DNA of 64,000 nucleotides from Candidatus Spongiisociaceae bacterium (GTDB lineage Bacteria > Actinomycetota > Acidimicrobiia > Spongiisociales > Spongiisociaceae), in contig OZ253564.1 in assembly GCA_965262915.1 (NCBI GenBank), positions 4,704,001 through 4,768,000 of the forward strand, written 5' to 3'. The translations under genes and the position numbers were made by a program. Shown in pieces: positions 18,068 to 29,012 of the stretch; position 1 is the first letter of the stretch; each line of letters begins with the position of its first letter. The notes below the pieces were generated by a model that saw only the letters and a program-made list of their open reading frames with translations, was not told the DNA's origin and did not search any database.

Positions 18068-18307
18068 GTGAACAAAAGAGCGGCTCCCGCCGACCCGGAC
18101 GGCTTCATTGCGGAGATGCCCAAGGCCGAACTGCACGTGCACCTCGAAGCGACCCTGCAGCCGTCCACAGCTACCACCGATCCGGCGCGGTTCAGCGCCT
18201 CCATGTGCGAGAGCGAACTCCGGTTGGCCCTCCTCCAAGAGTTCGACACCTGGACATGTTCACACGACACCCTGAACCGAGACCCCCGCCCCCACCCCAT
18301 CTCTTGA
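18068..18307 (+). pseudogene. Internally deleted in-frame mini-copy (79 aa) of the adjacent adenosine deaminase
   Basis: IAEMPKAELHVHLE..PSTA is joined to FSA.MCE.ELR..LLQEFDTW..DPRPHPIS*, matching both ends of 18322..19446. Confidence 0.85.
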
Positions 18308-18321
18308 TCCGAACCTGACAG

Positions 18322-19446
18322 ATGCACCACGAGACCTTGGCCACCGACTTGGACGATCTCATCGCGGAGATGCCCAAGGCCGAACTGCACGTGCACCTGG
18401 AAGGAACCCTCCGGCCGTCGACAGCTGTCACGCTGGCCCGGCGCCACGGTCTTGTCGACACGCTACCCACTATTGATCCGGTGAAGCTCGCCGACTGGTT
18501 CGAGTTCAAAGACTTCAAGGACTTCATACGGGTGATAAGGGCCATCCAGAACCTGATCCGTACGGCGGATGACTTCGCCTTGGTCGCTTACCAGGCCGGG
18601 GCCGATATGGCAGAGCAGAACATCCGCTACCGCGAGCTGACGGTCTCTCCGTACAACCACACCCACATCTTCGACAAAGGGCTGTCCATAGGAGACATCC
18701 TCGGTGGTCTGGATCAAGGGCGAGACAGCGCCCGAGCAGACTTCGGCGTGGAGATCCGATGGGTGTTCGACATCTCCCGGAACTTCAGCTTCTCCGGCCC
18801 GGATGGGACCTACGATCCAGAGCCGGCGGAGGTAACCCTGCGCTACGGCCTGGCCGGGCAGGAGCACGGGGTGATCGGGCTGGGCATCGGAGGCGACGAG
18901 GAGGGGCGACCGCCTGAGCCCTTCGCCCATGCCTTCCGGGAGGCGAAACGGGCCGGCCTCAAGAGCCTCCCCCATGCCGGCGAGTCTCTCAGACCGTGGG
19001 GAGCGGACCACGTTCGAGGGTCGATCGACGTGCTGGAGGCGGACCGCATCGGGCATGGCGTAGGGGCAATCCGGGATCCGCACCTCCTCTCGGTCTTGGC
19101 AGACCGGGCCATACCCCTCGAGGTATGCCCCACCAGCAACCTGAGAACCCGCGTCTGCGAACGCACCGCCCTGCATCCGTTCCCGCACCTCGACGGGATG
19201 GGACTGACGCTTACGGTCAACAGCGACGATCCCCCTTTGTTCGGAACCACGCTCAACGACGAGTACCGGCTCCTGGCGACCGAGTTCTGCTACGGAGCGA
19301 CCGACCTGGCTCGGATCGCCCGCAATGCCTTCAGCGCCGCCATGTGCGAGGCGGAACTCCGGTCGTCCCTCCTCCAAGAGTTCGACACCTGGGCCCGTTC
19401 ACAGAACACTCCGAACCCGGACCCCCGGCCCCACCCCATCTCTTGA
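18322..19446 (+). CDS. add: Adenosine/adenine deaminase
   Basis: PKAELHVHLEG, PHAGE, DRIGHG, EVCPTSN, VNSDDP. Confidence 0.93.
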   Translation: MHHETLATDLDDLIAEMPKAELHVHLEGTLRPSTAVTLARRHGLVDTLPTIDPVKLADWFEFKDFKDFIRVIRAIQNLIRTADDFALVAYQAGADMAEQNIRYRELTVSPYNHTHIFDKGLSIGDILGGLDQGRDSARADFGVEIRWVFDISRNFSFSGPDGTYDPEPAEVTLRYGLAGQEHGVIGLGIGGDEEGRPPEPFAHAFREAKRAGLKSLPHAGESLRPWGADHVRGSIDVLEADRIGHGVGAIRDPHLLSVLADRAIPLEVCPTSNLRTRVCERTALHPFPHLDGMGLTLTVNSDDPPLFGTTLNDEYRLLATEFCYGATDLARIARNAFSAAMCEAELRSSLLQEFDTWARSQNTPNPDPRPHPIS

Positions 19447-19544
19447 TCCGAACCGCCGATCAGGCGCGCCTACCCGTACTTGACGGTCTCCCAGAACCCC
19501 GATGCCAGCCGAAGGGCCAGGGTTTACATCCAGGCCCCTGGTCG

Positions 19545-20765
19545 CTACCGGGCCACACCCACACGAGTAGTTGAATCGGCCTCCTGACTTGTCAGGCGAG
19601 CCGTGTCGCGTGCGATGAGGGACTCCTCATCGGTCGGGATCACCCAGATGTCTATGGGACTGCTGCCGGTGGAGATGCGCCTCTCCCCTTCGCCCCGGTT
19701 CCGGGAGGGCTCGACCACCAGACCCATGCTCTCCAGACCGGTCAGGATGAGTTCGCGGGCCTCGTGGCTGTTCTCCCCGATGCCACCGGCGAAGACCACC
19801 GCGTCGCAAGGCGCCACCTGTACCAAGAAGGCCCCGAGATACCGGCGCACCCTATGCGCGAAGGCCTCCACCGCCAGCGTGGCGGGCGGATCGCCGGCCC
19901 GGGCACGGTCGGCAACCTGCCGGAAGTCAGGGGAGATCCCGCTCAGACCCAGCAGGCCTCCCTCCCGCTCCAAACCGCGGCGGATCTCGGCCGCCGGAAG
20001 TCCCGCGTCCAGCAAATGGAACACCACCGCCGGATCGATATCGCCGCTGCGGGTCCCCATTACCAGTCCCTCCAAGGGCGTCATGCCCATGGAGGTATCG
20101 ACCGCGTGGCCGTCCCGGACCGCGCACGCGGAGGCCCCCGCGCCCAGATGGAGAGTCACCAGGTTGGGTCGGGGCTTGTCCAGCAGCCCGGAGGCCCGCT
20201 CAACCAGGTACCGGTGGCTGATCCCGTGGAAGCCGTAGCGTCGCACCCCGAAGTCCCGCCACCAGCGGGTGGGGACCGCATACCTGTAGGCGTGGGGAGG
20301 GAGCGTGGAGAAGAAAGCAGTGTCGAAGACGGCCACCCCCACCGCTCCGGGTAGGAGCTCCCGAGCGGCCCGGATACCCGCCAGGTTGGCCGGGTTGTGG
20401 AGCGGGGCAAGGGCCTCCAGGGACTCGATAGCCTCGATGACCGAGCGATCGATCACCACAGACGCCGAGAAGCGGTCGCCTCCGTGCACGACCCGGTGGC
20501 CCACCCCCACAATGTCAGCCGGGTCGTTGATCGGAGGGGGCGACCCCCACTCCATCAGGACGTTGACGATCCGAGCCACGCCCTGCCGGTAGTCGGCAAC
20601 CTTTTTCTCGACCGTGGTCTTCCGATCACCCACGTGGTGGAGATGTCTCGGCCGATCCCCACCTACGCCCTCGATGATCCCGCCCGCCAGGGTGTCTCCC
20701 ACTCCCCGTCCGTACAGCTTGTACTTGATGGACGAGCTGCCGCAGTTGATCACCAGTATCCGCAT
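19545..20765 (-). CDS. ackA: Acetate kinase
   Basis: VINCGSSSIKY, GHRVVHGG, LAPLHNP, RYGFHGISH, DTSMGMTPLEG, GGIGENS, IPTDEE. RBS AAGGAG precedes ATG 20765. Confidence 0.95.
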   Translation of the reverse strand: MRILVINCGSSSIKYKLYGRGVGDTLAGGIIEGVGGDRPRHLHHVGDRKTTVEKKVADYRQGVARIVNVLMEWGSPPPINDPADIVGVGHRVVHGGDRFSASVVIDRSVIEAIESLEALAPLHNPANLAGIRAARELLPGAVGVAVFDTAFFSTLPPHAYRYAVPTRWWRDFGVRRYGFHGISHRYLVERASGLLDKPRPNLVTLHLGAGASACAVRDGHAVDTSMGMTPLEGLVMGTRSGDIDPAVVFHLLDAGLPAAEIRRGLEREGGLLGLSGISPDFRQVADRARAGDPPATLAVEAFAHRVRRYLGAFLVQVAPCDAVVFAGGIGENSHEARELILTGLESMGLVVEPSRNRGEGERRISTGSSPIDIWVIPTDEESLIARDTARLTSQEADSTTRVGVAR

Positions 20766-20814
20766 GAGCTCCTTGCGGGTATCCACCAAGAGCAAAGCCG
20801 CTATACCGCTTTGT

Positions 20815-21327
20815 TCAGACCGTCAGCGCTCCGAGGATCTCGGGAAAGGCCGCCTCGGCGAGAGCCCGCATCTCCTCGTCGGTACGGTCCTGAATCGGAT
20901 GGGTGGTGAACACCCGGCGGGGGTGCATTCCCAGGGCCCGACCCTGGGCGTCTGCGGCCTGCACGAAGCGGTCCGACGCCACGAAGACACCCGGCAGGCC
21001 CCGGTCTTCCAGATCCACTATGTCGTGCACACTGCACGACGCGCAGGATCCTCAGTCGGCCAGGGCTTCGATCACCGCCCCGCATTCGGCGGCGATCTGC
21101 CGGCGCAAGTCGAGCGGCGCCGGTTTGGAGAAAGTAGGTTTGCGGTAGTGTCGCACCGCCACCCCCCTCTCGGCGAATAGCTCGCTCAACCTCCCGATGA
21201 ACACGTCCCCCCGCGGTTTGGAGATGTCCAGCAGGGCAACGGTACCGTGGGCGAGGTCGGCGAACCGGGGACCCAGACCCCGTTCCTGGGTGGTTCTTTC
21301 GCTTGTCGGGTCCAGCAATGTCGTCAT
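20815..21327 (-). CDS. UGSC-motif selenoprotein (Sec at TGA 21052-21054), 170 aa
   Basis: ORFs 21052..21327 and 20815..21030 are in frame and read IEALAD-TGA-GSCASCSVHD. A SECIS-like hairpin lies 11 nt 3' of the UGA. Confidence 0.88.
21022..21040 (-). promoter_or_regulatory. Bacterial SECIS-like hairpin
   Basis: GTCGTGCA-GTG-TGCACGAC: perfect 8-bp stem with a G-initiated loop, starting 11 nt after the UGA. Confidence 0.75.
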
Positions 21328-21336
21328 CGGTCACCC

Positions 21337-22779
21337 CTAACGGTCGATCGCCACGGTGGTCATCTCCGAACTGGCCCTACCACCGATCCAGCCTGAGATT
21401 ACCGCCGAGAATCCCCCGGCATCCCCTCCTGCGTGTACGAACCAGAGCCCTTCGGGACCGAACTTCGGAATCTCCTTCTTCTTGTCCGCCAACCAGCTCG
21501 GCAGGCCTTCGGCTACGCCGCCCGCGCCGGCCACCATCTCGGAGGTTGGGAGGGTTAGCAGGGAGCGTATCTCCCGGCGGAGGCGGGCCTTCGTCCATCC
21601 TGCCTCCCGGAACACCCGGGCGTGTTCGGGGGAGACCACAACTATCGCCTCGGCCATTCCGGCCAGCTTCGGATGCCCGACCATGCGCAGCTGCAGAGCG
21701 AAGGTTCTCGCCAGCGACTCGGGAGTGCGGGACTTCTGGTCGATGATCTCGATCGGTCCGTGCCCGGCGAACAGCGTCACCGTGGAGTCCCCGGGCGAGA
21801 AGCCCCGTTCGACCGCTAGCGACTCCCACGGGGAGTCCTCCTCACCCTCGGGGAAGCAGAACGAGAGCTTGCTCGGGCTGCCGAACGTCGCCTGATCCAC
21901 TCCTCCCGGTCGGGCTCCACCGACGTTGCGGACCACCAGGTTGAGAGCCCGTCCGATGGTCAGGTTGGCCCGGTTGCCCTGACCGAGCACGTTGATCCCC
22001 GAGTTCATCCCGATCTGCCCTCGTACCGGCCCGTTGACGATCAGCACCGGCCCCGAGAAATAGGTGGTGGCCGAAACCCCGTGGATGTTGAAACGGCTCC
22101 CGGCCGCCGCCTCCACCGCCGCCAGCACCACCGGCAGGTATTCGGGCAGGCACCCTGCCATCACCGCGTTGATCGCCACCTTCTCCACGGTGCATTCCAC
22201 CAAGTCCGTAGGGATTATGCAGAGCACCTGGTCGGGAGGAAGATCGGTGCCCTCCAGCATCCTCGCCACCCGCTCCTCGGTGGGAGGGGTAACGGGGAGA
22301 CCATCCGTCCATCCCCGGGCGAAGGCAGCCTCGACCGGATCTTCTGAGGTTCCCAGATCCACTCTCCGTGACGACATAGGGTATGGCGAGTGGCGTCGGA
22401 GGAGCCTTTCGTAAGTGTCCGGCAGCATGGTGTCCGAACCGCACCCGGGACGCTGATCAGGAAGGCCCTGGCCCAAACCGGTAACTGCCGCCACCCGTTC
22501 CCATCCGGTCCTGTGCCACCCGGCCTGCTGATCGACCGCGTCCCCACCCTCGATCCGGTAGATGGTGGGGGTCGTCTCGGTACCCAGATGCCACGAGATG
22601 TCCAGTTCCCGGTCGTGGATCACGTCGAATCCCTCGGGGAAGCCGGCCCGATCCTGCGAAACCAGTGCTAGGGATTCCTCCCCTGCGGCAAGTCGGGCCA
22701 GCGCGGGCACCACCAAGTGGCATGTCTCGCAATCGTCCTTGACAACCACCAGCAGTCCGTCAGCAATAGGCAGGCTCAT
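21337..22779 (-). CDS. Thioredoxin-like (CxxC) domain fused to an uncharacterised conserved domain; partner of the UGSC protein
   Basis: KDDCETC and TPT (cis-Pro-like) in the N-terminal domain, linker PGCGS, then GWTDGLPVTPPT and VEKVAINAVMAGC. Ends 9 nt before the selenoprotein start. Confidence 0.75.
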   Translation of the reverse strand: MSLPIADGLLVVVKDDCETCHLVVPALARLAAGEESLALVSQDRAGFPEGFDVIHDRELDISWHLGTETTPTIYRIEGGDAVDQQAGWHRTGWERVAAVTGLGQGLPDQRPGCGSDTMLPDTYERLLRRHSPYPMSSRRVDLGTSEDPVEAAFARGWTDGLPVTPPTEERVARMLEGTDLPPDQVLCIIPTDLVECTVEKVAINAVMAGCLPEYLPVVLAAVEAAAGSRFNIHGVSATTYFSGPVLIVNGPVRGQIGMNSGINVLGQGNRANLTIGRALNLVVRNVGGARPGGVDQATFGSPSKLSFCFPEGEEDSPWESLAVERGFSPGDSTVTLFAGHGPIEIIDQKSRTPESLARTFALQLRMVGHPKLAGMAEAIVVVSPEHARVFREAGWTKARLRREIRSLLTLPTSEMVAGAGGVAEGLPSWLADKKKEIPKFGPEGLWFVHAGGDAGGFSAVISGWIGGRASSEMTTVAIDR

Positions 22780-22901
22780 AGGTCGCCGGTCCTCCCCGGG
22801 TTGGTCATCTCAAAGATAGTCATCCAACATCAAAGTGCATGCACCCTCTCGAACATCGGGCACCCCAAGCAGGACAGGCTCGTGATGCTATGATATCACT
22901 C

Positions 22902-23150
22902 ATGAGGACCATAATCACACTTCCGGATCATATGCACGCCGACGCCAAGCGGCGAGCTGCCGCGCTTGGAATCAGCTTCGCGGAGTTCGCCCGCCGCCTC
23001 TTCGAGAAAGAACTCGCCACAGCCGTACCACAAGGCGATATCGACTCGATATGCGGCATGGTAGAAGGAACACCCTTCGACATGGCAAGCGACGGAAGAC
23101 GGATGATCGAAGAGGCCACCATCAGTCTCATCTCCGATAGGCGTGGCTGA
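22902..23150 (+). CDS. Ribbon-helix-helix (CopG/VapB-type) antitoxin
   Basis: MRTIITLPD..AKRRAAALGISFAEFARR. TGCTATGAT extended -10 lies 7 nt before the ATG. Confidence 0.8.
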   Translation: MRTIITLPDHMHADAKRRAAALGISFAEFARRLFEKELATAVPQGDIDSICGMVEGTPFDMASDGRRMIEEATISLISDRRG

Positions 23151-23153
23151 GGG

Positions 23154-23573
23154 GTGGCTTATTCGTACGTAGACACGTCGGCATGGGTTTCCATGGCGGA
23201 CAGGGCGGAGGCGTCCCACCAGCGCGTCGCGACCGCGTTGCGCGCCCGTCGAGGCCGTCTCGTCACCAGCGACCACGTACTCCACGAGACATGGACCTTC
23301 ATGCGCAACCGGCACGGCTGGCAGGCAGCGGAGCAACTCGTCACCGGCATCCGGGGTGGTATCGCGCGGATCGAGGTCTCCGGAGTGGCCGACCTCGAAG
23401 CCGCGGCCACGATCGGAACCATCTTCGCCGACCAGGACTTCTCCCTGTCGGACCGCACTAGCTGGGCCGTGATGGAGAGGCTAGGAATCCACGACGCAAT
23501 ATCCCTGGACAGAGACTTCCACATCTACCGTTTCGGTCCCGGCCGACGCCGCTACTTTACCGTTTCACCCTGA
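23154..23573 (+). CDS. vapC: VapC PIN-domain toxin
   Basis: YVDTSAW, TSDHVLHET, FSLSDRTS, SLDRDF. Confidence 0.9.
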   Translation: MAYSYVDTSAWVSMADRAEASHQRVATALRARRGRLVTSDHVLHETWTFMRNRHGWQAAEQLVTGIRGGIARIEVSGVADLEAAATIGTIFADQDFSLSDRTSWAVMERLGIHDAISLDRDFHIYRFGPGRRRYFTVSP

Positions 23574-23648: not shown

Positions 23649-26600
23649 TCAACGCGAAGGCGCGCCCGTCCGGACCGGCTCCGAAGCGCCGTCGGGGAGA
23701 GCAGGCTTTCCACACCGGACCCGCTGCGTCGTGGGGTCAATCCGACGATGGCGCACTTCGAGGATCGGGAGTTCCCAGGAGGGTACGACGATCCGCTCCC
23801 GGAATCCGGGCTTGCAGTCCTCCTTCCGGCGGAGCACTATCGCCAGGACACGGACTTCACCCACGCCCCGCATCTGTGCCCGTTGCCATGCCTTCGCAGC
23901 TGTTCTGGACAACCTCGCCACCTCGATACCGGTGTCATCGAGTACCCTCACCTGCCCGTCCTGGCCGGGCTGCAACTTGAGCGTATCCCCCGTACGCATG
24001 CGGGCCAGGGACCGGTGGATCGGATTCTTCTCTCCTTTCCTGCCTGCAAAGTCCAGGAACAGATCCCCCATCCCGAGGATCGTGTACGAGTGCTCGGCGT
24101 ACCTAGCCGTACCACTCCCGGCTACCCCCACCCTTCGGCGAATCACACCCGGCCCACACAGTTCGTCCAGATACGGAATCGGATCGTCCCTCCGACTGAG
24201 GAGGGTGAGGGTCTCCCGAGCACGGGTCATCGCCACGTAGTAGAGGCGTCGCTCCGCCTCCGACGAGTCTCGCTGTCCCGACCCCTTCCGCCATTCGCCT
24301 CCCAGTACCATGACATGGTGGAACTCGAGGCCCTTGGCGGAGTGGACGGTGCCGACCAAGACCCCATCACCAACAATGTGCGATCTCACGTGATCGGCCA
24401 GTGCCTGGTGAATAGCTTCGGCAACCTCGGTGGCTGCACACGGATGGGCACCGGTGCCCCCCTCAACTTCCTTGAGCACGCGTCGGGCCATCGCCGTCCA
24501 GAGCGACTCTGCACCGCAGACCTGTCCGAGCCGTGTTCTGAGTTCCGGCACGGAGATGTCCTTGGCTCGAAGCTCGTCCAGATGATCGAGCAGCAGTCTG
24601 AACTCCCGGATGCGACCTAACCAAGGCAGCCCGTCCGTGATCGCCCGGCGAACGGGAACGCCCTTCATCTCCAGGAATGCGCGTACGACCGCCACCTGCT
24701 TGTGGGTTCTGGCCAGGACGGCGAAGTCGTGCCAGTCCGGTGCCCGATCCAGCTTGCGCAGACGCTCGATCTCGGCAAGCACACGCGCTACCTCGGCACC
24801 CGCATCCCCCACATCGAGTAACAGGACATGGCCCCTGGCTTCAGGATCCAATGACTGCCACCTCCCGCCGGGAGGGTCGTCAGAGCGACGAAGATCTATC
24901 CGGATCGGGTGGTCGGTCTTCATCCGCTCCCGGTTGTTCCGGATCAGACCGTTCGAAACATCGATGATGTGCCTGGTGGAGCGATAGTTGTCGACCAGGT
25001 AGTGCCGCTCGGCGTCGAAGTCCTCCTCGAAGCGGCGCAGGAAACGTACGCTGGCCCCGCGCCACTCGTAGATACTCTGGTCGTCATCGCCTACCGCGAG
25101 GATGGCTGCGAAGCGATCCTCGTCATCATCGCTCCCCGCCCGCCGAGCGATATGGGTGATCATCTCGTACTGTTTCGAGTCGATGTCCTGGTACTCGTCG
25201 ACCAGCACGTACTCGAATCCCAAGAGGAGGCGATCCCGCAGCTCGTCGGGGGCGACCCCTACCGTCTGCTCCTTACCCCTGAGGCGTCGGTTGGCGTCTT
25301 CAATGATCGCGTCGAAGTCGATCTGCTCCCGGTCGCCTGCTTCGAGTCGCACCGCTGCCACCGACCGCTCGGTCAGCCGCAGGGCCAGGGAGTGGTAGGT
25401 GTGGACCGCGACCTGCCGTGCCAGATCACCCACTAGTAGACGCAGCCGGAGCCGTAACTCGTGCATGGCGGACCGGTTGAAACAGATCACCAGGATGCTC
25501 TGCGGGCGGATGCGCTCCACCCTGAGCAGGTAGGCGCAGCGATGCACCACCACCCTCGTCTTGCCCGATCCCGGACCGGCCAGCACCATCACGTTGCGTT
25601 CCTTCGGGGCGGTCACGATCCGTTCCTGCGCGTCGTTGCCGAGGCTCTCCACGATCTCGGCGTAGCTCGCTCTCGAGGTGGCCCGGTTGAGTGTTTCCCG
25701 AGCGCCCTTGAAGTAGCGCCGTTTGAACCCCTCCGTGGACATCTTGAAGTAGTCGTCCACGTACGGGCGAGCCGCGCCATCCAAGCTGTCCTGCGCTTCC
25801 TTCACGTACCGTCCGATAGCGTGGATCTGGAATATCCGCCCCTTGTAGTGATCCTGGAGTGGGCGGTAGTGGGAATTGCCGTAACGCTTGCCCTTCGCCT
25901 CCTCCCGCACGCGGATCGTCATGGCCTGGCGGAAGATCGCCAGCCCGTGCTGGAGCCGGATGACATGGTGCTCGTCCAGGAACAGGAGGGTCTTCTCGAT
26001 CAGGTCAAACGGGTCGGCGAGACGCGACGCAAGCCCGATGCGTCCGTCTATGGCTTTCCCGAGATCCTCCAGAGAGAACAGTATGAGCCGCTCGCCGACC
26101 AGTTTCTGCTCGTCGGCCTTCCTACCAAGCGTTTCGAGAATCACCCGGCCCACCTCGGTCCGCAACTCCAGCAACTCCCGCAGTTCATCCCAGCCGACCT
26201 GCACCCCGAGACGTATGCCGGAGCGTCCCTCACTCCTCAGGATGACCGGCGCCTGCCTACCTAGACCTTCCCGAGCCCAGCCCGCCAGCAGCTTCAGCAG
26301 GCTGTCGTTGATCAGGCGCACTCCCTGTACGCGCAGACGTTCCTGCAGGCGGGGGATGGAGATCTGTATCTCTTCACCGGAGCCACCGTCATGGTCTTGG
26401 GCGCGCAGCAGTTCCTGCAGTTTGGTCTGCGCCCCGTGGATCTCGTCCAACCGGTCCTGCGACTTGGTGGTCGTCTTGTGACGGATCCAGGCCGAGAAAT
26501 AGGTTCCGCTCTCCAGCAGTCCCGCCCGGGACATCTCGTAGAGTGTGCGGAAAATCTCCCGGGTGGCCATACGGTTGAGCCCTGCCGCATCGTCCCCGAA

Positions 26601-29012
26601 TCGGGTACGGAGATGCCAGAACAGCGACTTGAAGGAGCGCAGGGATGCGATCTGGTCGATGTCGATCCCATCCCGCAGATCGGCGGTTTGAAGGAGGTCC
26701 AGAACCTCGAGCCACCGGCGGCGCATGCTCTTCGAAAGGTTCAGTCCATCCATCTTGACCTGCGCAGCTTCGATATCGGGAACCGCCGGCACCCCCTGGA
26801 AGATCTGGGTCCGGTTCTCGTCCCGCAGCACGAAGCGGGTCCGTTCGAGCCACGAGATGGCGACCTTCACCTTGGTGGCGGCAGTCCGATCCTCGGCATC
26901 GAACGAAGTATCTGTATCAGGCACCCGTAGGAGTTCGCGGGGCGCGACCACGATCTCGTCGATGTCCCTCCGGCGCACCCGGCGGATCGCCCTGAGTATC
27001 TGGGCGATGTCCCGCTTCGTGAGACGATCGCGGGAGGCCAGATCGAACTGCCTCTCGAGATCCCCTTTGGTGAAGAGCAGCACGCAGTGGGCAGGTTTGC
27101 CATCCCGTCCGGCCCTACCCGCCTCCTGGAGGTAGTTCTCGATGGACCCCGGTACGTCGGCATGCACCACGATCCGGACATCGTCCTTGTCGATGCCCAT
27201 ACCGAACGCGTTGGTGGCCACGATGACCGGCAGATCGCCCGAGATGAATGCGTCCTGGACCCGTTTCTTCTCGGGGGGATCGAGACCGGCATGGAAGTGT
27301 TCCGCCTCCCAACCCCGCTGCCGGAGCAGCGTGGCGAGTTCCTCGGTTCCCCTGCGGCTGGAGGCGTAGATGATCGCCGCGCTCCGGGCGGGGTTCCCGA
27401 TTCGATCCGCCAGCAGTTCGTCGATTCGCGCCGCCTTGCGGGAGGTCGGTATCTCCTCGACCGAATAGTGAAGGTTGTCCCGGTCGAGGCGATCGCCGGC
27501 GATCTGCTCGATTTCCTGGCCGAGTTCCTCGCCAAAGTGCCCGACGATCTCCTCGCGCACATCCAACCTCGCGGTCGCGGTGAAGCAGGCCACCGGCGCG
27601 ATGTCGACGCCTTCCCGCTTTGAGAACTCCCGGATGAATCGGGCTGCGTAGAGGTAGTCGGGGCGGAAATCGTGACCCCATTTGGAGATGCAATGGGCCT
27701 CGTCGAACACCCAGGCCGCTATCTCGCGCTGCCGGATGGCCCGTTCGAAGGACGTGTTACGCAGCTGCTCAGGCGAAACGTAGAGCAATGCGTAGCGTCC
27801 GAGCCTTGTTCCTTCGAGCACGTCCCGGCGCTCGGGCATGGTCTGGAGACCGTTCAAGGTGGCGGCAAGAGTCGGAGACTCCGTCCTGCGGTTGAGGTTG
27901 TCGACCTGATCCTTCATCAGCGCCTGCAGGGGCGATATCACCACGATCAGGGCGCCGGACTGCTCGTTTCGAAGGATCGCCGGTAACTGATAGCAGAGTG
28001 ACTTACCCCCACCGGTCGGCATGATGCCGAGGAGAGAGCGCCCCTCGATGACTTGGGTAACGATCCGCTGCTGAAGGCTTTCACCGTCAGCCGTCTTCGG
28101 AGCGTCACGGAAGCCGGGGAAGCCAAAATACTTCTTGAGCTTGTCGTCCAGGTTGTGGTGCTTGGAGCAGTAGACGCACTTTGAGTTGCCGCACGGTGTT
28201 CCCCGCACAGCTCGGATAAGCCGGGATGCCGCCGGGAACTGGTGGTGTACCCATCTCGGTAGGACGGACTCCGTTCCCGCCACCATCGTCCAAGCAAGGG
28301 AATAGGCAATCGTGGGCCGGCTTTCGGCTCGATCGAGGAGCGGGGGAAGATGGCTCCGGATAGCATCCGGGCATGCCTTCTCCCCGGCGAAGTAGTGGAA
28401 GCCGCCCACGAGCCGATCGCGCTGCAACTCCCGACCGCCCAGGGCCTCGAGGAATAGGCCGGTTCCGTTCAGCTTGAGATCAGATGCCCCCTCCGCCTCA
28501 TCAGAATCGTCGAAACAACTCCTATAGAAGGACAGCAGCCAGCGGTTGTTGCTCTCCCATTCCTTGAGAAGGTCCCAGCATTCCTCGAGGAGCTGCCTGG
28601 TTAGTAGGCAGTCGGCGACCGGATCGCTTTGCTCCGCGCCGACGAGCTTGTAGTCCTTGACCAGACGGTGATAGGGACGCTGAGGCTTGGCAAGCGGCGC
28701 CAGGTAGAGCGTGTCCACCACCGGCAGATCGAGCAGCGTGGCTCCGCGCAGGCGGGCCTCGATGAGCGGCCGGTCATGGGCCACGATGTTGTGGCCCACC
28801 ACGAAGTCAGCACCCTCCCCGAAGGCGTTCAGCTCCCGGACGGCCTCGTCCGAGGATGTCGCATCAGGGATCTTCAACTTCCTGTCACCATGCAGCGCGC
28901 CGAGCAGCCTGATTGACCCATTCGCCCTCGCCTCCAAGTCGAGGATCAGGCACCTGTCAACGAATCGGCGCCAAGCCCGATCGGCAGCCTTAGGCGAGTT
29001 GCCGCCGGTCAT
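23649..29012 (-). CDS. 1787-aa fusion: DnaQ/RNase H-like exonuclease domain + RecQ (SF2) helicase + UvrD (SF1) helicase
   Basis: DLE..GHNIVAHD..VDTL; MPTGGGKSLCYQ, DEAHCISKWGHDFRPDY, ATNAFGMGID, QEAGRAGRDG; AGPGSGKT, VDEYQD, GDDDQSIY, NYRS, TVHSAKGLEF, YVAMTRA. Confidence 0.88.
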   Translation of the reverse strand: MTGGNSPKAADRAWRRFVDRCLILDLEARANGSIRLLGALHGDRKLKIPDATSSDEAVRELNAFGEGADFVVGHNIVAHDRPLIEARLRGATLLDLPVVDTLYLAPLAKPQRPYHRLVKDYKLVGAEQSDPVADCLLTRQLLEECWDLLKEWESNNRWLLSFYRSCFDDSDEAEGASDLKLNGTGLFLEALGGRELQRDRLVGGFHYFAGEKACPDAIRSHLPPLLDRAESRPTIAYSLAWTMVAGTESVLPRWVHHQFPAASRLIRAVRGTPCGNSKCVYCSKHHNLDDKLKKYFGFPGFRDAPKTADGESLQQRIVTQVIEGRSLLGIMPTGGGKSLCYQLPAILRNEQSGALIVVISPLQALMKDQVDNLNRRTESPTLAATLNGLQTMPERRDVLEGTRLGRYALLYVSPEQLRNTSFERAIRQREIAAWVFDEAHCISKWGHDFRPDYLYAARFIREFSKREGVDIAPVACFTATARLDVREEIVGHFGEELGQEIEQIAGDRLDRDNLHYSVEEIPTSRKAARIDELLADRIGNPARSAAIIYASSRRGTEELATLLRQRGWEAEHFHAGLDPPEKKRVQDAFISGDLPVIVATNAFGMGIDKDDVRIVVHADVPGSIENYLQEAGRAGRDGKPAHCVLLFTKGDLERQFDLASRDRLTKRDIAQILRAIRRVRRRDIDEIVVAPRELLRVPDTDTSFDAEDRTAATKVKVAISWLERTRFVLRDENRTQIFQGVPAVPDIEAAQVKMDGLNLSKSMRRRWLEVLDLLQTADLRDGIDIDQIASLRSFKSLFWHLRTRFGDDAAGLNRMATREIFRTLYEMSRAGLLESGTYFSAWIRHKTTTKSQDRLDEIHGAQTKLQELLRAQDHDGGSGEEIQISIPRLQERLRVQGVRLINDSLLKLLAGWAREGLGRQAPVILRSEGRSGIRLGVQVGWDELRELLELRTEVGRVILETLGRKADEQKLVGERLILFSLEDLGKAIDGRIGLASRLADPFDLIEKTLLFLDEHHVIRLQHGLAIFRQAMTIRVREEAKGKRYGNSHYRPLQDHYKGRIFQIHAIGRYVKEAQDSLDGAARPYVDDYFKMSTEGFKRRYFKGARETLNRATSRASYAEIVESLGNDAQERIVTAPKERNVMVLAGPGSGKTRVVVHRCAYLLRVERIRPQSILVICFNRSAMHELRLRLRLLVGDLARQVAVHTYHSLALRLTERSVAAVRLEAGDREQIDFDAIIEDANRRLRGKEQTVGVAPDELRDRLLLGFEYVLVDEYQDIDSKQYEMITHIARRAGSDDDEDRFAAILAVGDDDQSIYEWRGASVRFLRRFEEDFDAERHYLVDNYRSTRHIIDVSNGLIRNNRERMKTDHPIRIDLRRSDDPPGGRWQSLDPEARGHVLLLDVGDAGAEVARVLAEIERLRKLDRAPDWHDFAVLARTHKQVAVVRAFLEMKGVPVRRAITDGLPWLGRIREFRLLLDHLDELRAKDISVPELRTRLGQVCGAESLWTAMARRVLKEVEGGTGAHPCAATEVAEAIHQALADHVRSHIVGDGVLVGTVHSAKGLEFHHVMVLGGEWRKGSGQRDSSEAERRLYYVAMTRARETLTLLSRRDDPIPYLDELCGPGVIRRRVGVAGSGTARYAEHSYTILGMGDLFLDFAGRKGEKNPIHRSLARMRTGDTLKLQPGQDGQVRVLDDTGIEVARLSRTAAKAWQRAQMRGVGEVRVLAIVLRRKEDCKPGFRERIVVPSWELPILEVRHRRIDPTTQRVRCGKPALPDGASEPVRTGAPSR

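Follow-up and report, generated by a model that had tools for sequence, protein, structure and literature searches.

The stretch of DNA considered here (hereafter the window) comprises 64,000 nucleotides (nt) of contig OZ253564.1 (C1) of a Candidatus Spongiisociaceae bacterium, C1:4704001-4768000, and harbours on its minus strand three co-oriented genes, the first two of which probably encode the two parts of a single selenium-dependent reductase. The first one, hereafter the partner gene (21340-22779, 480 aa, stop codon TAG at 21337-21339), encodes a thioredoxin (Trx)-fold domain with a CETC redox motif (roughly residues 1-100, 22480..22779), followed by a conserved core of about 340 aa that we call domain X (roughly residues 145-480, 21340..22347); its cysteine motifs are C17-E-T-C20, RPGCGS (C113, in the linker between the two) and VMAGC (C210). 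Nine nt after the TAG lies the ATG (at 21327) of the second gene (20818-21327, 170 aa, stop codon TGA at 20815-20817), which encodes a putative selenoprotein of the UGSC family and contains an in-frame TGA (21052-21054) predicted to be read as selenocysteine (Sec, U92), so that the protein reads ..EALAD-U-GSCASCSVHDIVDLEDRGLPGVFVAS..THPIQ.., with the motif residues U92-G-S-C95-A-S-C98. A hairpin resembling a selenocysteine insertion sequence (SECIS) occupies 21022-21040. The third gene, ackA (19548-20765, 406 aa, ATG at 20765), encodes a kinase of the acetate/propionate family, starts 49 nt beyond UGSC and is preceded by a strong AAGGAG Shine-Dalgarno sequence; a weak terminator-like hairpin with a T-rich tail (19411..19428, also on the minus strand) lies about 117 nt past its stop codon. 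Rfam gave no match at gathering thresholds in the window. An earlier, sequence-only reading of this stretch had proposed that the three genes form an undescribed, compact Grd/Prd-like reductase coupled to the formation of ATP through ackA. The gene order, the common orientation and the gaps of 9 and 49 nt on which it drew are borne out by the open reading frame (ORF) coordinates, and the motifs it quoted (PGCGS, MAGC, the UGSC context and THP) are all present in the translations.

Judging by its scores against NF041046 (141 bits, cut-off 125) and PF24696 (141 bits, cut-off 25), the window selenoprotein is a member of the UGSC family, and the way in which this family occurs in other genomes ties it closely to the partner. 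In a phylum sample of 401 genomes scanned for UGSC, the family was found in 29 (in 19 above the cut-off), and in all the 20 loci that were fetched UGSC is immediately preceded on its strand by a partner homologue. Domain X is present in every one of these 20 homologues, 15 of which carry the Trx domain as well, while the other five lack it and consist only of the core of about 360 aa; their UGSC neighbours have Sec in 16 loci and Cys in four. A scan of species genomes with the partner protein returned 586 relatives, assigned by record title to Acidimicrobiia, Acidobacteriota, Chloroflexota, Myxococcota, 'Deltaproteobacteria', Alpha- and Betaproteobacteria, Nitrospirales, Spirochaetes and others, and among the best 80 of them, whose neighbours were examined, UGSC stands just downstream of the partner in 78; of the two exceptions, one has 6 nt of contig left and the other has 1034 nt with no UGSC. 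This amounts to adjacency in 98 of 100 other loci across many phyla. Furthermore, all the longer UGSC-bearing proteins returned by the search (14/14) are in-frame fusions of partner and UGSC: 13 of them terminate at ..EALAD, just ahead of the Sec codon, where the gene callers stopped, and the remaining one, a Cys-type protein of 651 aa, holds the entire UGSC domain. Apart from ORFs overlapping the pair, clustering of all the ORFs of 101 loci revealed no third gene present in more than 15 of them. Because the two genes are adjacent in nearly all loci and fused in every longer protein, partner and UGSC are supported, at the level of sequence comparison, as one functional unit, and the two-protein unit of Trx-fused protein and selenoprotein that the sequence-only reading had envisaged thus stands. 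Logan contigs from three sponge metatranscriptome runs (X4-X6) include short pieces, 95-99% alike, over parts of both genes; these contigs show neither transcription nor a single transcript, and the parts they leave uncovered prove nothing.

The assignment of Sec to the internal UGA is credible on several grounds of sequence conservation. Of the 96 homologous loci that cover the position of U92, 92 have TGA there and the other four TGC or TGT, and the columns D91-U92-G93-S94-C95, with U92 and C95 among them, are invariant in the UGSC alignment (A2). The SECIS-like hairpin (GUCGUGC-AGUGU-GCACGAC) begins 12 nt past the UGA and has a stem of 7 bp closed by the 5-nt loop AGUGU. All of the 30 homologous sites compared, which come from several phyla, retain it, with six of the seven pairs standard throughout and the outermost one broken in two sequences; one pair has changed from G-C to G-U in eight sequences, and a compensatory change from C-G to U-A is seen in one. 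Across the same 30 sequences the synonymous positions at the hairpin site are almost invariant, which argues for selection on the RNA itself. The genome also encodes the machinery for Sec insertion, that is, tRNA-Sec, selA (373 bits) and, adjoining selA, a 616-aa selB-like ORF whose beta-barrel domain scores 25 bits, under the cut-off of 27. If the UGA were instead a true stop, the region would consist of two short ORFs and the adjacency of the three genes would have no functional meaning. Public gene calls seem to side with that view, since most of them end at the UGA (of the best 120 near-length matches, 96 measure 93-126 aa and span about half the query). Nonetheless, this alternative is already refuted, with next to no probability left to it, by the occurrence of TGA in the same column in nearly all loci and of Cys in the rest, by the conserved hairpin, by the fact that both NF041046 and PF24696 match across the UGA above their cut-offs, by the presence of tRNA-Sec, selA and the selB-like ORF, and by the adjacency of partner and UGSC together with their fusions.

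Two further observations concern the decoding of this family. Three public 'full-length' UGSC proteins (P0139, P0140 and P0142) have W or R where Sec is expected (WGSC, RGSC), probably because a TGA was translated with another code or the codon is a variant one, and not through a true replacement. In some 10-11 loci, mostly of Betaproteobacteria (L013, L014, L047, L070, L071, L089, L096, L103, L105, L108 and L111), selB and selA adjoin the pair directly downstream of UGSC, which suggests that UGSC is a principal selenoprotein of those genomes.

As for what UGSC is, its AlphaFold model (predicted local distance difference test, pLDDT, 92.5) has a five-strand alpha/beta/alpha fold in which U92 follows a beta-strand and stands at the start of a helix. 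Foldseek matched this model in the PDB to flavodoxins, SsuE-type reductases and generic folds, with E-values of 6e-5 and weaker and template modelling (TM) scores of 0.4-0.55, and thioredoxins are absent among the listed matches; the model being flavodoxin-like by Foldseek, the Trx-like fold guessed for UGSC in the literature is not borne out. Searching the PDB with the UGSC sequence profile gave nothing significant (best E 0.028, a Rossmann segment of a dehydrogenase), and the ESM Atlas returned no usable named match for a Cys-form homologue. It is in the selenoprotein-B family (GrdB/PrdB) that a relationship emerged. The PF07355 model ends exactly at the Sec codon in the GrdB-like proteins examined, and the genes run on past the TGA in 10 of 10 GrdB-like genes examined from Actinomycetota, reading U-GTGTRCG..E..AGIPT.., as well as in 14 of 14 small PrdB-like genes, reading U-PxC..E..GIPT... 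A profile of this Sec-bearing C-terminal region (A7), built from 23 sequences of GrdB/PrdB-like selenoproteins, was aligned by hhalign with UGSC at 92.4% (E 5e-7), and with a second UGSC alignment, which has only the window protein in common with the first, at 90.9% (E 1e-6), whereas two unrelated profiles gave 0.6% and 0.1%. The register places Sec on Sec, LE.rGiP on E.aGIPT and HP on fP. These alignments support a remote homology between UGSC and the C-terminal domain that bears Sec in the selenoprotein-B family, UGSC itself lying outside the PF07355 family, and they bear out the parallel with GrdB that the sequence-only reading had drawn. In the UGSC passages of the searched papers that name both proteins this relationship is unstated, and the two appear as separate list entries.

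The window genome has several relatives of this family of its own. Its GrdB-like genes at C1:2787751-2789070 and C1:3111183-3112500 (L114, L115), like those of loci L022-L033, read ..LT[ST]T-U-GTGTRCG.. (10/10 examined) and extend about 85 aa beyond the end of PF07355 and of the usual ORF calls; a PF09338 (GrdE/PrdA-like) gene lies directly upstream of the GrdB-like gene in 10 of 10 loci checked. A small PrdB-like selenoprotein with TGA at the Sec position is encoded at C1:4665150-4666259 (L117), about 38 kb before the window, and belongs to a family (..LTP[VSA]-U-PxC[HTCQN]..) with TGA at this position in 14 of 14 members from other genomes (L119-L132); these small proteins match only the last third of PF07355, and four have a further C-terminal extension of about 230 aa. 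PF07355 matches were counted in 83 of the 401 phylum-sample genomes, a tally that includes four unpublished genomes (G148, G336, G268 and G318), on which no alignment and none of the other claims rest.

The partner protein, modelled by AlphaFold with a pLDDT of 89.3, matches no Pfam or NCBIfam family as a whole. Its N-terminal domain resembles thioredoxins, ResA and DsbE in Foldseek (target-normalised TM 0.5-0.6), a profile search of the PDB with the partner hit only thioredoxins (best E 0.0017) and nothing for domain X, and the Pfam Thioredoxin model finds the domain weakly (3 of 35 members, best E 0.016). All the Trx-bearing forms keep C17xxC20, the CxxC standing at the start of a helix. The earlier description of a CxxC-bearing Trx domain fused to a domain of no known family therefore holds, the Trx fold being recognised by Foldseek and domain X, of about 340 aa, having no Pfam match at E <= 10 in any of 35 members; the ESM Atlas links domain X only to unnamed or 'thioredoxin family' clusters of its own family. 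This family is large (at least 8000 clusters) and strongly conserved, since the C-terminal domain retains 43 invariant columns in an alignment of 35 sequences down to 32% identity (A1), the invariant residues of the partner including C210, R270, R277, D295, K304, E311 and H386 and the motifs of domain X being WTDGLPVxPPT, NAVMAGC, FNxHGxxATT, GxGNRANxTIGRA, PGxxDxATxGxPxK, PEHA and HAGGxAGxFS. Because of these invariant polar residues, and because domain X is kept where the Trx domain is absent, it looks like a catalytic domain that binds the substrate and not like one devoted to recycling. Some candidate relatives of the partner were tried and rejected. For domain X, Foldseek of the whole partner model against the PDB gave weak matches to class I fumarate hydratase, which we do not take as meaningful (TM 0.18-0.34, E 5e-3 to 2.5e-2, root-mean-square deviation 11-18 A); a pyruvoyl proprotein of the GrdE/PrdA type finds no counterpart in the partner (hhalign 0.2%, and no PF09338 match in 35 partner proteins); and hhalign with full-length GrdB-like proteins gave 0.4%.

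We therefore read the pair as a Trx-driven selenol reductase of the GrdB/PrdB type, made of two parts of one selenium-dependent enzyme and to which ackA is incidental, a reading to which we give a probability of about 0.6. By analogy with the chemistry of PrdB and GrdB, from which both the order of events and the direction of electron flow are inferred, domain X would hold the substrate, as its invariant Cys210 and its many invariant polar residues suggest, and the selenolate of U92 would attack it. C95 would then resolve the adduct, leaving a U92-C95 selenenylsulphide, which the C17xxC20 of the Trx domain, fused to the partner in most lineages, would reduce, possibly by way of C113 and C210, before thioredoxin reductase and NADPH recharged the Trx domain. 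Nothing suggests that the product of the pair is an acyl-phosphate.

Several points weigh against this reading. Among the PDB matches listed by Foldseek for UGSC (ranks up to 49; 59 with E <= 0.001) there is no Grd or Prd chain, and with HMMER none of 21 UGSC proteins matches PF07355, up to an E-value of 10. When UGSC is compared with full-length GrdB-like proteins alone, hhalign falls to 41% (E 2.7e-4), with the register unchanged, the UGSC-GrdB/PrdB alignment spans only some 75-85 columns, and the comparison set consists of Actinomycetota GrdB/PrdB-like proteins identified by PF07355, not of the characterised clostridial enzymes. Reviews call UGSC uncharacterised (PMC13188914, PMC9312934). 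Finally, ackA may be co-transcribed with the pair in this genome, as the spacer between UGSC and ackA has no predicted terminator and is bridged by a short contig. In a terminator scan of the minus strand from 19300 to 23300 the only site falls past ackA and none lies between UGSC and ackA, although the scan is a weak one (2 sites in the region for 1.5 expected from shuffles) and the accompanying promoter scan was not above chance. The contig, of 177 nt, covers 20684-20850 and comes from a run (X1) whose RNA status is only guessed; it is weak too, and runs X4-X6 have almost nothing over ackA. Neither the terminator result nor the spanning contig shows a functional coupling of ackA to the pair.

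This coupling is the core of the explanation from which the analysis started, namely that a compact Grd/Prd-like cleavage enzyme yields acetyl-phosphate or another acyl-phosphate, from which the adjacent kinase makes ATP by substrate-level phosphorylation. The kinase is of the acetate/propionate family, with 424 bits against TIGR00016 (cut-off 293) and 434 bits against PF00871, and all the more specific equivalog models, which would tell its preferred substrate, score under their cut-offs. The co-orientation, the short gaps, the strong Shine-Dalgarno sequence, the terminator-free spacer and its weak bridging contig speak for this explanation, as do the remote kinship of UGSC with GrdB/PrdB, the fact that the single PF00871 match of the genome adjoins the pair where no pta was found, and the recurrence of the arrangement in the closest relative (L034, partner 85% identical), whose downstream order of ackA, adenosine deaminase, phosphorylase and molybdopterin oxidoreductase is that of the window. 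But L034 is the sole such case. Within the fetched flanks (up to about 8 kb), an ackA homologue occurs in none of the 20 phylum-sample loci and in one of the best 80, immediate adjacency being evaluable in 86 of these 100 loci (20 + 66), which have about 1 kb or more beyond UGSC; and four relatives with partners 78-80% identical (L035-L038) share with the window only the pair. As ackA is thus found near the pair in only one of 100 other loci, that of the closest relative, the genomic comparison makes it a recent, lineage-specific neighbour and not part of a conserved module, and the coupling proposed by the sequence-only reading falls on the near-uniqueness of the linkage. Moreover, GrdA or GrdC accompanies the pair in none of the 101 clustered neighbourhoods, the partner has nothing of the pyruvoyl proproteins GrdE/PrdA (the 0.2% mentioned above), and many carriers of the pair belong to lineages, such as Rhodoferax, Noviherbaspirillum and Reyranella, which we take to be aerobic.

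The kinase does not lack conventional sources of acetyl-phosphate elsewhere in the genome either. The reaction of sulfoacetaldehyde acetyltransferase (Xsc) yields acetyl-phosphate, and in Grd systems its formation needs selenoprotein A and protein C. Both routes are represented: an Xsc gene lies at C1:485404-487089 (857 bits, cut-off 676), and a Grd-type cluster at C1:3478236-3484417 (L116) encodes a GrdE/G-like proprotein, a GrdB-like selenoprotein, GrdC-beta (589 bits, cut-off 450) and, with its own TGA, GrdA/selenoprotein A (197 bits, cut-off 130), the latter two at about C1:3.478-3.481 Mb. The GrdB-like gene of this cluster carries a frameshift or an assembly error, because at model position 235 its PF07355 match passes from one reading frame to another, and GrdD was not found above the cut-off in the genome. 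No match was found in the whole genome to PF01515 (PTA_PTB), to phosphoketolase (Xfp) or, above the cut-off, to an acetyl-phosphate-forming pyruvate oxidase. The matches to PF07355, PF04723, PF09338 and NF040746 all fall outside the window, which, together with the absence of PF01515, agrees with the earlier statement that no pta or grd gene is present in it. Distances of 1.2 to 4.2 Mb separate ackA from the Xsc and Grd-type genes; most likely ackA uses acetyl-phosphate from one or the other, and the presence of Xsc in a genome with a single ackA and no pta suggests that sulfonate-derived acetyl-phosphate is converted to acetate and ATP in this genome. The genomes closest to this one, which bears the Grd cluster, are Acidimicrobiia. 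With these sources at hand, energy conservation through ackA is highly improbable as the function of the pair and is an idea to be dropped for this window.

The other explanation to be weighed against a substrate-reducing enzyme is that the pair is a generic thiol/selenol redox protein, an antioxidant or disulphide oxidoreductase of the peroxidase-like or protein-repair kind, in which the partner only recycles UGSC and no small-molecule substrate is involved. A UxxC motif together with a fused Trx domain would suit such a role, UGSC is grouped with redox selenoproteins of Trx-like fold in the passages that PMC2398784 and PMC13188914 devote to it, and the pair has no metabolic gene as a constant neighbour. 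It is nevertheless unlikely, given that the UGSC model is a flavodoxin-like five-stranded alpha/beta fold and not a Trx fold, that the detectable relatives of UGSC belong to the catalytic selenoprotein-B family, and that domain X, whose 43 invariant columns comprise Arg, Lys, Asp, His and Asn residues among others, is kept in the 5 of 20 homologues that have no Trx domain. The Trx-driven selenol reductase thus remains our preferred reading, and it admits a bolder form, which we regard as tentative: the pair would be a minimal, pyruvoyl-independent relative of the B component and represent a new class of selenium enzymes, which would use its built-in Trx donor for the reductive cleavage of a carbon-heteroatom bond, the substrate being a small and probably anionic metabolite, and would be in wide use, also outside the anaerobic fermenters from which Grd and Prd are known. 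That, in this particular lineage, the product of such an enzyme would feed the adjacent kinase as an acyl-phosphate is very doubtful.

The remaining genes around the locus can be described briefly. The adenosine deaminase gene at 18322-19446 is intact, and directly upstream of it (18087-18315) lies the remnant of a second copy, in which 91 nt resembling its 5' part (18341-18431, 84%) are close-joined to 125 nt resembling its 3' end (19330-19454, 87%), so that it looks like an internally deleted tandem duplicate. On the other side, immediately upstream of the pair, the plus-strand region 22839-23573 holds a 103-aa ORF of no known family followed by a PIN-domain gene (23154-23573), which to judge by their sequences look like a VapBC-type toxin-antitoxin pair, and beyond them, at 23649-29012 on the minus strand, a gene encodes a protein of 1787 aa in which a DEAD/RecQ-like helicase and a UvrD-like helicase are fused. 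Neither the PIN gene nor the 103-aa ORF nor the helicase fusion is shared with L034.

How much of this is new? The sequence-only reading had called the system undescribed, which does not hold as far as the pair is concerned. A UGSC-containing protein with no assigned function appears in the UGSC-related parts of the metagenomic selenoproteome papers of 2007-2008 (PMC1976440, PMC2398784), and the latter reports a 'UGSC/Unknown_1' fusion from Global Ocean Sampling data; we infer that Unknown_1 is domain X. The window protein shares with the UGSC family the U-G-S-C motif, the UGA and the SECIS hairpin and is in itself no different from it; what the window adds to the known UGSC-partner pair is the ackA neighbour, which is lineage-specific. 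The combination of a single ackA and no pta with one Xsc and with GrdA and GrdC-beta corresponds to the textbook acetyl-phosphate routes. What the pair offers is tractability by experiment: two self-contained genes, an obligate pairing with one Trx-fused protein and a Sec site homologous to that of GrdB/PrdB.

Compared with known systems, the idea of a compact Grd/Prd-like reductase stands in part: the homology of UGSC with GrdB/PrdB and the unity of the pair are upheld, while the coupling to ackA, the GrdA/GrdC companions and a partner of the GrdE/PrdA type are not. Where the UGSC literature guesses a Trx-like fold, the window model is flavodoxin-like and its remote relatives are GrdB and PrdB. 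In UGSC, as in GrdB/GrdF/GrdH and PrdB, the Sec residue opens a helix behind a hydrophobic beta-strand, and further along the chain come an E..G-I-P-T/V strand and then a P/HP motif; a Cys three residues past Sec is shared with the PrdB-like forms. The gene order is likewise that of selenoprotein B systems, the selenoprotein gene being directly preceded by that of a large partner. Unlike selenoprotein B, however, UGSC has only 170 aa and is devoid of most of the region modelled by PF07355, and unlike the Grd and Prd systems, the pair has a built-in Trx domain instead of a free thioredoxin or PrdC, a partner that is not the pyruvoyl proprotein GrdE/PrdA, and no GrdA or GrdC companions. Trx fusions are known among methionine sulfoxide reductases, where the enzyme carries a redox-active CxxC Trx domain that would recycle its oxidised active site; here, in contrast, the catalytic chalcogen sits on a polypeptide of its own, and the domain fused to Trx, catalytic in appearance, belongs to no known family. 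In the pair, a Sec domain of the selenoprotein-B type would work with an unrelated, Trx-fused partner.

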